This document shows positions 3,257 to 27,049 of a DNA stretch of 40,689 nt, piece after piece. The stretch is from a virus. Numbering within the stretch: position 1 is the stretch's first letter; every line of letters begins with the position of its first letter. The translations under genes were made by a program, and so were the position numbers. The stretch lies in IMG/VR virus record IMGVR_UViG_3300045988_019236, positions 1 through 40,689 of that record; one strand, given 5' to 3'. The notes under the pieces were generated by a model. The model ran no database searches, had not been told where the DNA came from, and saw only the letters and a list, made by a program, of their open reading frames with translations.

Positions 3257-3344
3257 ATACTTCCTTTCTCAGCTATGCTTTGTTATATGGGGGTTGCGTC
3301 CCCTGCTGTCGGCTTGTTTTACGCCTGCCACGGCAAAAATGGTA

Positions 3345-6755: not shown

Positions 6756-6957
6756 GCTTTTCTCCTCCTGCGTTGATCGTGATGCGCCGCAGCGCACGCG
6801 TGGCGTACTGCAATCCCTGTATATAGGCGTTCAAAGTATCCACTTCCGCCCGAAGCCGCCGATTTTCCGCTTCAAGCGTCCTGATATCGGCTTGCAGCGA
6901 CGCTTTCGCCCAGATAGGTGCCATATCCACGATCCATTTACGAATCCGTTTCCTCAT
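6736..6957 (-). CDS. Small coiled-coil protein between terminase and portal
   Basis: An internal ATG at 6957 within track ORF 6736..7041 has GGAGGA 7 nt upstream. The protein has a heptad-like sequence (LEAENRRLRAEVDTLNAYIQ). It overlaps both neighbours. Confidence 0.55.
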   Translation of the reverse strand: MRKRIRKWIVDMAPIWAKASLQADIRTLEAENRRLRAEVDTLNAYIQGLQYATRALRRITINAGGEKRDLSEQ

Positions 6958-8176
6958 CGCAAATTCCTCCAATAATCTTTCGTGCCTGGTGGTTTCTACG
7001 CATGACGGTCGCGCAGAAATACCGGATATCATCCATGGCATGATCGTTTTCCTTCACAGGCTTATCCACTTCTCCCTTGTCGTCCCAGCGGTACAGGCCA
7101 AATTCCCGAATCGCGTCCTTGCAGCCAGAGCCGATTTTGATAACACCAGCTTGGAGCATCATGGCCGTCAGGCGAATACCGTACATAACATCATTCTTCG
7201 CTTTCCTGACGGAGAAACGCTTGTGTGAGCGAATGCAGGCAATAAAAGAGGCCGCAGACGGGTCAACCACAATGTGTCGGATATCCCTGTCACCGGCTAG
7301 CTGTTCGATTGCCCGGTAGTATTCCTCATCCGTAAGCTGTCGTTGCTGTTCCCTGCCGGAATGATAAAATTCCGCAACCCGGACAGCAACGCCGTCTCTG
7401 ACGCACCACAGGCCAGCAGAGAATGGGTTCAGTGTTCCATAGTCACAGGATATATACCACTCTCCACATTCCGGCAAATCGTCCGTGACGTGCCTCTCTG
7501 GATCGAAGTCGTATACAATCCCATCGGCCAAGCACCACTCGCCCATAATGTACCGGCGGTAAAACACGCCTGTGTACATAGCCTCATATCTGGCAAGCGT
7601 TTTTTCTGAAAGTGACGGATTATCCGGCATTGTGAAATGCAGATACAGGGCGTTCCGCTCACTGCAACGCTTAATCCAGTTTACATAAAACCAGTGGTTG
7701 GGATTGTCCGGGTTGCAGGAAAACCACATCCGCGCCCCATCTACAGAGCATCTTGCAAGTGCCTGATTCACAAAACTTTCAGGCATGAGCGCCACTTCAT
7801 CCAGCAGAACACCGGCCAGTGTGCGCCCCTGAATCAGCATGAAGGAACTTTCATCCTTGCCGCCAAACACCTCGAACCAATTCACCACAGAGCCGCGCTT
7901 GACTTCCAGCAGCTTATCCGAGCGCCGCCAGCGGATTATGTACCGCTCTTTTGCGTAGCTCATTGAGATATAGGGAACGACAATATTCTTTGTGGCGGAA
8001 TCCACAGTTTTGCCGCAAATGCCGAAACGTTGCCCGCTGAACTCACGCATAGCCCAATCTATGAAAGCTACCATCATGATGGACGTTTTGCCGGATCGCA
8101 CAGCGCCATCACAAATCAGTGCATCGTAGTTAGTATATGGAAATGCAAGGATTTTTAATTGCTTCTGTGAAATCAT
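6938..8176 (-). CDS. terL: Terminase large subunit
   Basis: Walker A motif GAVRSGKTS near the N-terminus. The start MISQKQLKIL forms an ATGA overlap with the stop of 8173..8979. The track ORF extends to 8200. Confidence 0.9.
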   Translation of the reverse strand: MISQKQLKILAFPYTNYDALICDGAVRSGKTSIMMVAFIDWAMREFSGQRFGICGKTVDSATKNIVVPYISMSYAKERYIIRWRRSDKLLEVKRGSVVNWFEVFGGKDESSFMLIQGRTLAGVLLDEVALMPESFVNQALARCSVDGARMWFSCNPDNPNHWFYVNWIKRCSERNALYLHFTMPDNPSLSEKTLARYEAMYTGVFYRRYIMGEWCLADGIVYDFDPERHVTDDLPECGEWYISCDYGTLNPFSAGLWCVRDGVAVRVAEFYHSGREQQRQLTDEEYYRAIEQLAGDRDIRHIVVDPSAASFIACIRSHKRFSVRKAKNDVMYGIRLTAMMLQAGVIKIGSGCKDAIREFGLYRWDDKGEVDKPVKENDHAMDDIRYFCATVMRRNHQARKIIGGICDEETDS

Positions 8177-23569: not shown

Positions 23570-23591
23570 GATTCACCTTTTCAAGATAATT
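23570..23591. repeat. 22-bp direct repeat GATTCACCTTTTCAAGATAATT, copy 1 (contains the operator motif)
   Basis: Identical to 23817-23838. It lies in the 5-prime leader of 23325..23537. Confidence 0.85.
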
Positions 23592-23799
23592 ATGGTTCAA
23601 AAAAAATGTGGTCAACTTGCTCAGCAGAAAGATCGAGAATAGACTTTATGCTGCGAACTTCGCCAAGCGAGAATTCCGCTCCACCAGTTCCGTTCAATTT
23701 GGCGTTAAACCTAGACAAACTGACACCGATACTGCGGGCAACATTCTCTTGGGTCATTGCCTTCGCTCGTATTTCGCCTTTTAGCAAATTGCTATTCAT
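23590..23799 (-). CDS. Cro-like / antirepressor-like HTH protein
   Basis: ATG at 23799 with AAAGGAGGGG upstream. HTH segment MTQENVARSIGVSLSRFNAKLNG. It is divergent from the repressor gene. Confidence 0.7.
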   Translation of the reverse strand: MNSNLLKGEIRAKAMTQENVARSIGVSLSRFNAKLNGTGGAEFSLGEVRSIKSILDLSAEQVDHIFFEP

Positions 23800-23816
23800 T
23801 TTTTCCCCTCCTTTCG

Positions 23817-23838
23817 GATTCACCTTTTCAAGATAATT
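23817..23838. repeat. 22-bp direct repeat, copy 2 (operator at the transcription start of the leftward promoter)
   Basis: Identical to 23570-23591. Confidence 0.85.
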
Positions 23839-23937: not shown

Positions 23938-24258
23938 ATGACACTTGGAGACAAAATCCGCTTCCACCGGAAACGGCTCGGCATGACGCAAACGGAATTA
24001 GGGGCGCGGCTAGGCGTTCAAGTGAACGCCGTGAGCAAGTGGGAGTGTGGGCGTGTGGAATCAATCCCGACGTCAAAAATTAAAGAGCTTGCAAAAATTT
24101 TCGGCGTAGCTCCATCCTATTTAATAGATGATGGACAGCCCGCCGATTCCAGCGAGCTGTCCGAAGCCAAGAAAGCTATGTATGATTTTGTCGATTCGCT
24201 TTCTGACGATCAGGTGCGGCGGCTTCTTCAGATAGCACACGCCGCATTTGAGAAATGA
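23938..24258 (+). CDS. XRE-family phage repressor (CI-like, no peptidase domain)
   Basis: MTLGDKIRFHRKRLGMTQTELGARLGVQVNAVSKWECGR. RBS GAAAGGGGGG. Confidence 0.8.
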   Translation: MTLGDKIRFHRKRLGMTQTELGARLGVQVNAVSKWECGRVESIPTSKIKELAKIFGVAPSYLIDDGQPADSSELSEAKKAMYDFVDSLSDDQVRRLLQIAHAAFEK

Positions 24259-24521: not shown

Positions 24522-24550
24522 TTGACAACTGAATATTCAGGCTTTATAAT
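24522..24550 (+). promoter_or_regulatory. Consensus promoter of the RNA-repeat/toxin unit
   Basis: TTGACA (24522-24527), a 17-nt spacer, then TATAAT (24545-24550). Confidence 0.8.
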
Positions 24551-24570
24551 GAGGGTGTGGATAATTCCAC

Positions 24571-24670
24571 GATGATGAAGCCTTAGAGCGAGGCTTCTGC
24601 GGGAAAAAGAAAGCTCAATTGATGATTTGCTCGTAGAGCGCGAGCAGCATAATCAAAAGAAAGCTCAATT
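24571..24670 (+). ncRNA. Two tandem 50-nt repeats, a candidate type III antitoxin RNA
   Basis: Units are 24571-24620 and 24621-24670, identical at 31 of 50 positions. Each has a 7-bp hairpin with loop TAGAGCG and ends in AAAAGAAAGCTCAATT. No ORF covers the repeats. They lie between a promoter and a terminator, upstream of the toxin-like ORF. Confidence 0.7.
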
Positions 24671-24677
24671 GATTTTC

Positions 24678-24710
24678 ACGCCCTCTGTTTCGACAGGGGG
24701 CGTCTTTTTT
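24678..24710 (+). terminator. Rho-independent terminator between the RNA repeats and the toxin ORF
   Basis: ACGCCCTCTG-tttcga-CAGGGGGCGT forms a 10-bp stem with one G-U pair. It is followed by CTTTTTT, and then by the RBS AGGAGAG. Confidence 0.8.
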
Positions 24711-24723
24711 AGGAGAGAGATAG

Positions 24724-25146
24724 ATGAAGCTGATCACCCTGTCCCCGGTCTTCTACGAAAGGTATCGCGGCTGTGAAGAGATTCTGATAAAGCAGACAAG
24801 GCCGTATGTCTGTTTGGCGGTTAAAGTTGACGGCGTTACATTCGCAATTCCTTTTCGCCACCATATTCCCCACAAGTGGGCATTCTTTACCGTTGGCGAA
24901 GCTGGGCTGGATTATTCAAAAGCCGTCGTCATCTCCGAATGGCGGTTTATCAATTCAAGCACACCGACCATCGAGCAGGAAGAATTCAATATATTGAAAG
25001 GGAAAGATGCACTGATCACCAACGGAATGCGGAAATTCCTGATTGCGTACAGGAATGCCGTGAAGTATCCGGATAACAAGCATTATGACATGATCCGTTC
25101 ATGCAGTTCCCTTCAATACTTTCACCGCGAATTACGTATTCGTTAG
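24724..25146 (+). CDS. Type III toxin-antitoxin toxin-like protein (ToxN/AbiQ-TenpN-CptN superfamily-like endoribonuclease)
   Basis: 140 aa: MKLITLSPVFYERYRGCEEILIKQTRPYVCLAVKVDGVTFAIPFRHHIPHKWAFFT...GLDYSKAVVI. The call rests on locus architecture plus motif resemblance from memory. Confidence 0.65.
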   Translation: MKLITLSPVFYERYRGCEEILIKQTRPYVCLAVKVDGVTFAIPFRHHIPHKWAFFTVGEAGLDYSKAVVISEWRFINSSTPTIEQEEFNILKGKDALITNGMRKFLIAYRNAVKYPDNKHYDMIRSCSSLQYFHRELRIR

Positions 25147-25325: not shown

Positions 25326-26012
25326 ATGGATTCAAATACAGGCCAAACATTCATCGAGGAAATGCAGCCGAATTTCGATGCCCTCCCGGAAAGGCTGAAA
25401 GACGAGAAATTCCGGAACCATCTGACGAATCAGCAGCTTTCTGACGTGTCCGGCGTTCCTATCGCCACAACAAGCCGGATTCTTTCCGGTGCCGTATCGA
25501 ACCCCGGCTTTTTCCATATCGCCGCGCTGTGCGCCGCTATGGGCGTGTCAATGGATTCCGTTGCAGGTGTTCACCCAAGCGGAGATCAGGCGGAAATAGA
25601 CCAGCTCCGGCAGGAGATAGCATACAAGGACGAGATAATTGCCGAGAAGGGCGCGGCGATAGACCGCTTACTGGACAGGAGCCGCATTATGGAGGCTGGT
25701 GTCGCGGCCAGAGATGACCGCATCGGCAAACAAAATGAAGAAATAAAGAATGTCCGCAGCTCATACAAAATCCTTGTGTACGGGCTGTGCGGCGTTTGCA
25801 TTACGCTGACATTTGTGTTGGCAATCTATGTGGCTCTGGATAGCCAAGCGCCAGACCAGGGGCTGATACAGTCTGATAATGTTTCTCCGGTCGTATGGGC
25901 AGGTGCGGCGGCTGTTATTGTACTGCTGTTCGGCCTTCTGCACTTCACTGTAAGCAAATTATCAAAAAAGAGGGATACGCTATGGGAAGAAAGAAAAAAG
26001 AGCCGGGGGTAA
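25326..26012 (+). CDS. Membrane-anchored HTH protein (XRE-like HTH, coiled coil, two TM helices)
   Basis: ATG at 25326 with TAGGAGGG upstream. HTH segment LTNQQLSDVSGVPIATTSRILSG. Hydrophobic segments ILVYGLCGVCITLTFVLAIYVAL and VVWAGAAAVIVLLFGLLHF. The 3-prime end overlaps int by 31 nt. Confidence 0.65.
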   Translation: MDSNTGQTFIEEMQPNFDALPERLKDEKFRNHLTNQQLSDVSGVPIATTSRILSGAVSNPGFFHIAALCAAMGVSMDSVAGVHPSGDQAEIDQLRQEIAYKDEIIAEKGAAIDRLLDRSRIMEAGVAARDDRIGKQNEEIKNVRSSYKILVYGLCGVCITLTFVLAIYVALDSQAPDQGLIQSDNVSPVVWAGAAAVIVLLFGLLHFTVSKLSKKRDTLWEERKKSRG

Positions 26013-27049
26013 AACTCCCGGCTATAATACAACTCCCGTCAGGGTCATGGCGAACAAGAATCTATATCGACGGCCGCACAGTATCCATAACGAAAGACAC
26101 CTACGACGAATGCGCGGCGGAATACCTCGCCATGAAGCACGGGGTCATTGAAGCGAAAGCCGCCCCCATGAAGCACGGGGTGCCGCTGGGGGACGCTCTC
26201 GACAAATACATTTCGACCCGGAAGGGGTTCAAGTCACCGTCAACGATTTATGCGTATGAATCCTACCGCAAGCAGCGCTTCCAAAGCATGATGGGGGCCG
26301 ACGTGTACACCACCACGGACGAACAGTGGCAAGCCGCCATCCGCAGGGAAGCAAAATCACTGTCCCCGAAATATATTAAAAATGTGTGGATGCTGATTTC
26401 CGCAGCGATATTCGAGGAAACTGGACGCAGGCCGCGGGTGACCCTGCCGGAAAAGGAACACAACGAAAAGCCGTACCTTGATCCGGATCAGATACCGGTG
26501 TTCCTGCAAGCCATAAAAGGGGAATCGATAGAAATTGCCGCCCTGCTGGAATTATCCAGCTTGCGCAGGTCTGAGATGCTGGCGCTGACGTGGGACAAGG
26601 TCGACTTCAAGAACGAAATAATATATGTCCACGGGGCAAGAGTTGCCGGGGACGGCGGCAAGCTGGTTCACAAGAAGCAGAACAAAAACGATTCCTCCCG
26701 GCGCACGGTGCCAATTATTGAGCCGCTAATGGAAGCACTAAAGGCAGTTGATAACAAGGAAGGTTATGTCGTCAACCTGACCGGCGGGTGGATATGCACA
26801 AGGATAAACGAGATTTGTTCCGCCAACGGCCTGCCGAAAGTCGGGAACCACGGATTGCGGCACAGCTTCGCGTCTCTGGCTTATCACCTCCAGATACCGG
26901 AAAAGATAGCAATGGAAATTGGCGGGTGGGCAGATGACGGGACGATGCACAAAATATATACACATCTGGCACAGAAAGACATTGCAAAACGGGCGCAGGA
27001 TTTTCGGAACTTCTTTGTGTCAAATGCGGATGAAAAAGCGCAAATTTGA
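25982..27049 (+). CDS. int: Tyrosine integrase
   Basis: ATG at 25982 with AGAGGGA upstream. C-terminal catalytic region HGLRHSFASLAYHL...GGW...MHKIYTH. The track ORF starts at 25895. Confidence 0.9.
   Translation: MGRKKKEPGVKLPAIIQLPSGSWRTRIYIDGRTVSITKDTYDECAAEYLAMKHGVIEAKAAPMKHGVPLGDALDKYISTRKGFKSPSTIYAYESYRKQRFQSMMGADVYTTTDEQWQAAIRREAKSLSPKYIKNVWMLISAAIFEETGRRPRVTLPEKEHNEKPYLDPDQIPVFLQAIKGESIEIAALLELSSLRRSEMLALTWDKVDFKNEIIYVHGARVAGDGGKLVHKKQNKNDSSRRTVPIIEPLMEALKAVDNKEGYVVNLTGGWICTRINEICSANGLPKVGNHGLRHSFASLAYHLQIPEKIAMEIGGWADDGTMHKIYTHLAQKDIAKRAQDFRNFFVSNADEKAQI

Follow-up and report, generated by a model that had tools for sequence, protein, structure and literature searches.

Two predicted pseudoknot repeats very probably form the RNA antitoxin of a TenpIN operon in a temperate gut siphovirus

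Analysis of a 40.7-kb stretch of viral DNA (hereafter the window) led us to conclude with high confidence that positions 24571–24670 encode the antitoxin of a TenpIN operon (type III toxin-antitoxin, abortive infection), which forms part of the lysogeny module of a temperate siphovirus of the gut. Here we describe the anatomy of this operon, the family of its toxin, the covariation of both RNA helices, and the old age of the two repeat types. The finding flags an unannotated RNA antitoxin beside a gene that is labeled only "toxin" or "AbiQ" in public records, and it locates an abortive-infection module of the TenpIN type among the lysogeny genes of a prophage that is common in the human gut.

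RESULTS

Overall organization of the repeat array and its operon

The region 24571–24670 consists of two 50-base repeats, whose parts are listed in Table 1. Unit 1 reads GATGAT-GAAGCCT-TAGAGCG-AGGCTTC-TGCGGGAA-AAAGAAAGCTCAATT, and unit 2 reads GATGAT-TTGCTCG-TAGAGCG-CGAGCAG-CATAATCA-AAAGAAAGCTCAATT. The first stem (S1) of unit 1 contains seven Watson-Crick pairs, and that of unit 2 contains six Watson-Crick pairs and one U-G pair. As the original prediction had claimed, direct reading of the sequence confirmed that six of the seven S1 pairs differ between the units with every pairing retained (row L082 of the comparative set, whose sequence is that of the window), and that three elements are shared without change: the 5′ GATGAT, the TAGAGCG loop, and the 16-nt tail AAAAGAAAGCTCAATT. 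Beyond the GAT that follows unit 2 in the window, GATGA is found 3′ of unit 2 in most loci of the window's clade. The covariance model R1, described below, matched unit 1 with an E-value of about 1e-11 and unit 2 with an E-value of 3.5e-13, and it gave no further match in the 40.7-kb window beyond the two units. The pattern is not a product of chance. Tandem Repeats Finder did not report the unit pair; non-identical tenpI repeats are known to escape this program (PMC12283969).

The repeats are preceded by a sigma-70-type promoter and followed by an intrinsic terminator, behind which lie the ribosome-binding site and the toxin gene. Judging from the motif match, transcription would start from this promoter. 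Both the promoter and the terminator, the latter a hairpin at 24678–24703 followed by a T-run (motif match), are found at the equivalent places in related loci. A small leader hairpin lies directly 3′ of the expected transcription start and adjoins unit 1. By inspection, the stem of this hairpin varies among related loci with its pairing retained (TGGA/TCCA, CAGG/CCTG, CAAGG/CCTTG, and TAAGG/CCTTA), and the hairpin is absent from the termite-gut clade; it may serve in 5′-end protection or provide a processing context. The RNA region as a whole folds far better than shuffled sequences (z = −4.5). Tandem repeats 5′ of the toxin gene (here two 50-nt units plus GAT), with a single promoter 5′ of the repeats and a Rho-independent terminator before the toxin (here motif matches), are features by which TenpIN loci are recognized. 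Published TenpIN arrays hold 1.9–3.0 copies of 39–57-nt repeats, and the toxin of P. luminescens has 143 amino acids (PMC3401426). The window array (50 nt × 2.06) and its 140-aa toxin are within the published ranges, which supports the TenpIN identity.

The neighboring genes include two XRE-type repressor-like genes of the lysogeny module, a gene for a DNA-binding HTH protein, and a tyrosine integrase gene. IMG/VR UViGs of 34–48 kb show 99–100% identity over the locus. From the integrase and repressor neighbors, together with these viral genomes of 34–48 kb that carry the locus, it follows that the phage is temperate and that the TenpIN module lies in its lysogeny region. Elsewhere in the window, positions 3274–3335 (−) match the Rfam GP20-b RNA (RF03003, cis-regulatory) with 43.3 bits against a gathering score of 36.2, and GP20-b (RF03003) is also matched by positions 7788–7847 of contig L114, one of the contigs discussed below.

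Table 1. Coordinates of the features of the tenpIN locus in the window and of toxin-less units in other contigs
Feature	Sequence	Position	Strand	Basis or remark
XRE-type repressor-like gene	Window	23590–23823	−	Lysogeny module
XRE-type repressor-like gene	Window	23938–24258	+	Lysogeny module
Sigma-70-type promoter of the tenpIN operon, TTGACA-17 nt-TATAAT	Window	24522–24550	+	12/12 consensus match
5′ leader hairpin, GTGGA-TAAT-TCCAC	Window	24557–24570	+	In MFE fold
TenpI unit 1	Window	24571–24620	+	Model R1 match, 68.8 bits; S1 and S2 covariation
Unit 1, 5′ tail GATGAT	Window	24571–24576	+	
Unit 1, S1	Window	24577–24583 with 24591–24597	+	Loop 24584–24590
Unit 1, S2	Window	24586–24589 with 24613–24616	+	GAGC with GCTC
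Unit 1, A-rich loop	Window	24598–24612	+	
Unit 1, 3′ tail AATT	Window	24617–24620	+	
TenpI unit 2	Window	24621–24670	+	Model R1 match, 75.6 bits; Rfam RF02925 (6A), 63.1 bits
Unit 2, 5′ tail	Window	24621–24626	+	
Unit 2, S1	Window	24627–24633 with 24641–24647	+	Loop 24634–24640
Unit 2, S2	Window	24636–24639 with 24663–24666	+	GAGC with GCTC
Unit 2, A-rich loop	Window	24648–24662	+	
Unit 2, 3′ tail	Window	24667–24670	+	
GAT, beginning of partial third repeat	Window	24671–24673	+	Sequence; array of 2.06 repeats
Intrinsic terminator	Window	24678–24710	+	11-bp stem with 7 G-C pairs, T-run; between repeats and toxin gene
Ribosome-binding site AGGAG of toxin gene	Window	24711–24715	+	Sequence
tenpN toxin gene, 140 aa, predicted endoribonuclease	Window	24724–25146	+	NCBIfam NF047358
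HTH protein gene	Window	25326–26012		Hydrophobic C-terminal stretch (by eye)
Tyrosine integrase gene	Window	25982–27049		phrog_1, E = 3e-45
Full array and terminator, without toxin gene	L123	1031–1130		Position is that of the units; three contigs
Full array and terminator, without toxin gene	L140			
Full array and terminator, without toxin gene	L109			
Promoter, leader, and one unit	L097	630–679	−	Position is that of the unit; two contigs
Promoter, leader, and one unit	L108			
Single unit-2-type copy and ~85-nt element	Nine contigs			Upstream of terminase small-subunit or ParB-methyltransferase genes
Solo unit, example	L106	10561–10610		
Solo unit, example	L127	1297–1346	−	
Solo unit, example	L129	6823–6872	−	
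Conserved ~85-nt element	L106	10611–10705		After solo unit
Unit in other context	L128			Before endolysin gene; one of four contigs
Unit in other context	L122			Before HNH endonuclease gene
Unit in other context	L124			
Unit in other context	L100			

The downstream gene encodes a TenpN toxin

The product of the gene downstream of the repeats matched the NCBIfam NF047358 TenpIN equivalog with 124.2 bits against a cut-off of 90, over profile positions 1–141 of 141, and this was its sole NCBIfam match. An AlphaFold2 model built from 44 homologs reached a pLDDT of 95.7. Comparison of the model with PDB structures by Foldseek gave ToxN (2XD0, prob 1.00 and TM 0.55; 4ATO, TM 0.61) and AbiQ (4GLK, TM 0.52) as the best folds, followed by MazF toxins. 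The model thus predicts a ToxN/AbiQ endoribonuclease fold, with a sequence identity of 12–14% to the ToxN and AbiQ structures. By sequence, the toxin did not fall into the ToxN/AbiQ or CptN families (no match in a Pfam scan, and TenpIN only in NCBIfam). A PADLOC scan gave no match, and PHROG 8049 (function not assigned) matches the toxin. A phmmer search of PDB sequences returned noise only, and no solved structure of TenpN or TenpIN turned up in the phmmer and Foldseek searches of the PDB.

The exact toxin sequence is on public record as DAD99010.1, "toxin [Siphoviridae sp. ctVzN31]", with the name "protein AbiQ" in one source. The exact protein is found on about 50–100 contigs of up to 48 kb. 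Protein searches yielded 111 homologs, the named ones from Oscillospiraceae and Lachnospiraceae MAGs. In a protein-pattern scan of GTDB genome representatives, the sole match was L001 (CAZLVK010000140.1, 1063 bp), which is binned to an "uncultured Bacteroidaceae" MAG, a binning that is doubtful for so short a contig.

Both helices of the TenpI units covary

The units were compared across 92 related loci with flanking DNA (about 400 kb searched) and the window. The covariance model R1, which was built from 13 units with the hairpin as its sole structure, found 160 units in these loci, usually two per locus, and all 160 share the strand of the toxin gene and immediately precede it. An alignment of 95 distinct units was used for the pairing counts. 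Pairing is conserved in the related loci, and so the covariance check put forward with the original prediction came out in its favor: S1 was 99.1% paired, formed 41 distinct helices, and showed double changes at all seven pairs.

A second helix (S2), formed by loop positions 3–6 with the four bases 3′ of the A-run, was 100% paired in the 95 distinct units. Its variants are GAGC/GCUC (54 units), GAAC/GUUC (18), GGGC/GCCC (16), and GGUC/GACC (1), plus six G-U variants. S2 showed 40 double-change cells compared with 8.1 ± 2.2 in shuffles, a count inflated by shared ancestry, the S2 variants amounting to ~5–6 independent changes rather than 40. Controls with slid partners gave 2–37% pairing. Because S2 was absent from the model and the alignment was not fitted to it, the S2 test is independent. 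Among 48 distinct two-unit loci, 24 have units unlike in S2, and in all 24 each loop matches its own downstream tail, which fixes the pseudoknot register. Pairing of the loop with the tail of the upstream neighbor was rejected, as loci with unlike S2 always match the downstream tail. An extra helix between the 5′ UGAU and the AUCA of the unit-2 long loop, given by RNAfold and RNAalifold, was also rejected, as it is lost where these bases vary.

Analysis of the covariation indicated that each unit would form an H-type pseudoknot with an A-rich third loop. The predicted pseudoknot consists of S1 (7 bp), L1 (2 nt), S2 (4 bp), a one-base junction, and a long A-rich loop of about 15 nt. Across the 95 distinct units, the bases invariant in the whole family are A15-G16 of the loop, A36–38, A40–41, and G43, that is, A-G and AAA-N-AA(A)-G. 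A pseudoknot RNA, here supported by the covariation of S1 and S2, with a conserved A stretch, here A36–38 and A40–41, is a further feature by which TenpIN is recognized. The original prediction had proposed that selection acts on RNA structure together with specific single-stranded sequence. The structural part is upheld by the S1 covariation, while the single-stranded part did not stand: the loop and the tail GCTC pair as a covarying 4-bp stem, so that neither the "invariant loop" nor the GCTC of the "invariant tail" is a free single strand.

The Rfam 6A RNA as a TenpI unit

Rfam 6A (RF02925) matched unit 2 end to end at 24623–24673, with 63.1 bits against a gathering score of 41.2, and the match spans the hairpin and its conserved loop as well as the A-rich 3′ part. 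Unit 1 was not listed by 6A even at E-values up to 10, yet it scored 68.8 bits with R1, and the 6A seed therefore appears to be dominated by the unit-2 type. Above-threshold 6A matches were found upstream of tenpN in 17 of the 20 diverse related loci tested. These sequence matches indicate that Rfam 6A is a TenpI unit, which ties a function-less Rfam "sRNA" family to a defined function. The 6A model contains the hairpin only, without the loop-tail helix of the TenpI units, and Rfam types 6A as Gene; sRNA rather than as antitoxin. An earlier paper is said to be the source that describes the 6A motif. Within the searchable literature, no paper was found that ties the 6A RNA or RF02925 to toxin-antitoxin systems, and 6A is unmentioned in the main text of PMC5737381.

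Divergence of the two unit types

Within the clade of the window (20 distinct loci, with toxins down to about 50% identity), the nearest relative of unit 1 was the unit 1 of another locus in 18 of 20 cases, and that of unit 2 was another unit 2 in 20 of 20. The mean identity was 0.91 among unit 2s and 0.78 among unit 1s, of which the clade holds 16 distinct sequences, compared with 0.67 between the units of one locus. Comparison of the units thus indicates that units 1 and 2 represent old, separate lineages that are orthologous across loci, in line with the earlier argument against a recent DNA duplication, and the retained pairing indicates that both are under structural constraint. In L001, the closest outside relative (toxin 76% identical), each unit carries one fresh compensatory change, the stems being GAAGTCT/AGACTTC and TTGTTCG/CGAACAG. 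Among the 48 distinct two-unit loci, the units differ in S1 only (18 loci), in S2 only (16), in both helices (8), or in neither (6). Compensatory differences between units would arise if pairing alone is constrained in S1 and the units have evolved separately for long. In the termite-gut loci (L048–L081), S2 is GAAC/GUUC in unit 1 and GGGC/GCCC in unit 2, and GGGC stands in both units of a few loci.

Toxin-less units in other phages

Scanning IMG/VR for the pattern of the loop-to-tail motif gave 49 contigs (within L093–L141). In 23 of them tenpN lies just downstream, and eight were rejected as chance matches without a model match. The remaining 18 contain genuine units with 49–74 bits (R1), above the 6A threshold where tested, and no TenpN in the fetched stretch; their contexts are given in Table 1. 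The group of nine contigs that carry a single unit-2-type copy has several different upstream flanks. In this group, the solo unit is followed by a conserved ~85-nt element (L106, with equivalents in L127, L103, L141, L107, L132, L129, L126, and L114), which always lies 3′ of the solo unit, before different genes and behind different upstream flanks. The ~85-nt element has no Rfam match, and its predicted hairpins show no covariation. Among seven distinct solo sequences, the seven variable columns all lie outside the 22 paired positions (Fisher p = 0.014). A blastn search of INPHARED phages gave no match for the locus, the RNA region, or the solo-unit module.

In L129, a tRNA-Trp gene (6871–6947, −) ends exactly where the solo TenpI-like unit begins, and tRNA processing could set the 5′ end of this unit. 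The view of solo units as tRNA-linked elements was rejected, as a tRNA adjoins the unit in one of 13 contigs checked. Three Rfam RNAs of "sRNA" type, with no function given, lie near TenpI units: DUF3800-I in L097 (1485–1595, −; 100 bits), skipping-rope in L108 (9371–9441; 57.8 bits), and FuFi-1 in L109 (2613–2771, −; 75.6 bits).

DISCUSSION

Proposed mechanism and candidate cutting site

By analogy with known systems, we infer the processing, inhibition, stoichiometry, and anti-phage role of the window module as follows. Transcription from the single promoter would give an RNA with a small hairpin followed by the two 50-nt TenpI units; most transcripts would end at the terminator, and a minority would read through into tenpN. 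Each unit would fold by itself into an H-type pseudoknot, in which the loop GAGC pairs with the downstream GCUC to form S2, the A-rich 15-nt long loop lies along S1, and the core carries a short single-stranded tail on either side, GAUGAU (5′) and AAUU (3′). As in ToxIN and CptIN, TenpN would cut the precursor into units, which would then keep it inactive by enclosing it in a closed ring of protein and RNA, their tails occupying its active site. When an incoming phage stops host transcription, the labile RNA would be lost, and the freed TenpN would cleave RNA. The infected cell would then die or stop growing, and the lysogen population would be protected or the prophage stabilized. In P. luminescens, TenpIN is a toxin-antitoxin pair that aborts coliphages, as shown in E. 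coli (PMC3401426).

Type III toxins are known to cut at A-rich sites (PMC5086642), so that the suggestion in the original prediction of a toxin cleavage or recognition site in the A-rich tail is a reasonable one. However, the only A-rich site of the TenpI units is enclosed in the predicted pseudoknot: S1 precedes it, and the 3′ strand of S2 follows it. Since the A-run forms the long loop of this pseudoknot, as it does in CptI and ToxI, it is a less likely cutting site than the linker between the units, and it is probably structural. As the candidate processing site we favor the 10-nt linker (C-A/G-A-Y-N-G-A-U-G-A-U), with the cut most likely in CAAU-N-GAUGAU, because the pseudoknot core of ToxI and CptI stays intact while single-stranded tails are presented to the toxin, because loci of the window's clade retain GAUGA after unit 2 without a third unit, and because the solo copies retain just AUGAU...CAAU.

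Alternative explanations

The repeats lie in the 5′ untranslated region directly before an intrinsic terminator, and weak sub-threshold Rfam leader matches (PyrR and rnk leader) overlap the region, as might be expected if the repeats and terminator were a cis-acting leader of the downstream gene (attenuator or riboswitch-like) rather than a trans-acting antitoxin. We consider this very improbable, given that the downstream gene encodes a TenpN toxin, of a family whose repeats act as antitoxin in trans (PMC3401426), that the same units occur alone, without gene or terminator, in other phage contigs, and that the PyrR and rnk matches are far below their gathering scores. It is scarcely credible that the repeats are DNA-level elements, such as iterons or operators for the neighboring XRE-type regulators, although they do form a pair of direct repeats between genes, beside repressor-like ones. 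The changes between units are compensatory for RNA pairing and include strand-specific G-U pairs, the long-range loop-tail helix covaries, every unit is found between promoter and terminator on the strand of the toxin gene, and the stem arms vary in sequence, with 41 distinct helices. The original prediction had also argued against protein-binding DNA iterons, and the RNA-pairing changes and the covarying loop-tail helix bear this out.

Within this antitoxin, the structural constraint on both repeats bears on a question raised by the 2025 survey, namely whether both non-identical repeats work (PMC12283969). The difference between the units may itself be selected, for autonomous folding, against slippage deletion, or for non-equivalent places in the complex. 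This would suit the 42 of 48 distinct two-unit loci that are unlike in at least one helix, and the termite-gut units, which have the same S1 and long loop yet differ at exactly the two middle S2 pairs. We hold such selection to be doubtful: six distinct loci (L020, L040, L046, L056, L069, and L081) have the same helices in both units, so that the difference is not obligatory, ToxI and CptI function although their repeats are near-identical (PMC12283969), the same pattern is expected from independent neutral drift as long as pairing is constrained, and the clades yield a handful of independent events. Improbable, too, is the view that unit 2 is the sole working antitoxin and that unit 1 is decaying or otherwise employed (as processing substrate, spacer, or dosage buffer), a question that PMC12283969 also asks. 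Unit 2 is the better conserved across loci (0.91 versus 0.78 identity), it alone is reported by Rfam 6A in the window and in most loci, all toxin-less solo copies in phages are of its type, and the unit 1 of about 20 loci is too divergent to be among the best 150 model matches. However, unit 1 retains full S1 and S2 pairing through many compensatory variants, every family-invariant base (A15-G16, A36–38, A40–41, and G43), and the 5′ and 3′ tails that it shares with unit 2, and a decaying copy would not retain such features while the toxin diverged to about 50% identity.

Toxin-less units as possible antitoxin mimics

The lead given by these orphan units is of greater interest than the window module itself. 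By analogy with the pseudo-ToxI of phage PhiTE, which acts against ToxIN (PMC3475682), the toxin-less 6A/TenpI units may mimic RNA antitoxins in nature. Such unit-2-type copies would then neutralize TenpN during infection, as the PhiTE pseudo-ToxI does ToxN. If the solo units do act in this way, mimicry of type III antitoxin RNAs would be an anti-defense strategy that recurs in nature, rather than a laboratory curiosity. It is a tentative and somewhat unlikely extension of this idea that the 6A/TenpI fold serves as a shared currency in gut-phage conflicts, with full modules set against toxin-less mimics, the fast-evolving unit 1 non-equivalent to unit 2, which evolves slowly and is widely copied, and their divergence partly the outcome of an arms race.

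Comparison with known type III systems

The module has the order of published TenpIN systems, that is, promoter, ~2 repeats of ~50 nt, terminator, and ~140-aa toxin (PMC3401426; Nadig et al. 2025, PMC12283969). Published tenpI repeats show up to 35% variation and a conserved A stretch, and an H-type pseudoknot was proposed for them by manual inspection (PMC12283969); the window repeats likewise differ from each other, share the conserved A stretch, and are predicted to fold as a stem 1/stem 2 H-type pseudoknot. TenpIN is reported in Caudoviricetes from human microbiomes (PMC12283969), and the window module is a Clostridia-type gut prophage member. In contrast to the manual inspection of the 2025 survey, the pseudoknot is here backed by counted covariation with controls, and the unit types of the window's clade are resolved as separate old lineages.

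CptIN of Eubacterium rectale (PDB 4RMO; Rao et al. 2015, PMC4627078) also has ~2 repeats (45 nt) and comes from gut Firmicutes. The TenpI unit resembles CptI, whose H-type pseudoknot has an L1 of a single base and a long A-rich loop in A-minor contact with S1 (PMC4627078). In CptIN, single-stranded RNA tails enter the toxin (PMC4627078), and two RNAs and two proteins form a closed ring, an arrangement that would suit a two-unit array. CptIN differs in its toxin family (CptN), in its near-identical repeats, and in having a solved structure. ToxIN of Pectobacterium atrosepticum and AbiQ/antiQ share the predicted toxin fold of the window module (2XD0, 4ATO, and 4GLK), and they have the operon logic, repeat-precursor processing, and abortive-infection role that we propose for it; they differ in having 36-nt units in 2.8–5.5 identical copies and a heterohexameric triangle. 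In phage PhiTE, toxin-less antitoxin-like repeats (pseudo-ToxI) neutralize a type III toxin (Blower et al. 2012, PMC3475682). That case concerns ToxIN and escape mutants of one laboratory phage, whereas the solo TenpI-like units are natural, occur in several contexts, and lie outside the window.

The kind of system is thus already described, and the window module is an ordinary, nicely resolved TenpIN. To the published systems, the present analysis adds the counted covariation of both helices, the pseudoknot register, the orthology of the unit types, and the assignment of Rfam 6A as a TenpI unit on sequence grounds, and the TenpI family thereby gains a covariation-tested pseudoknot model comprising S1, S2, and their register.
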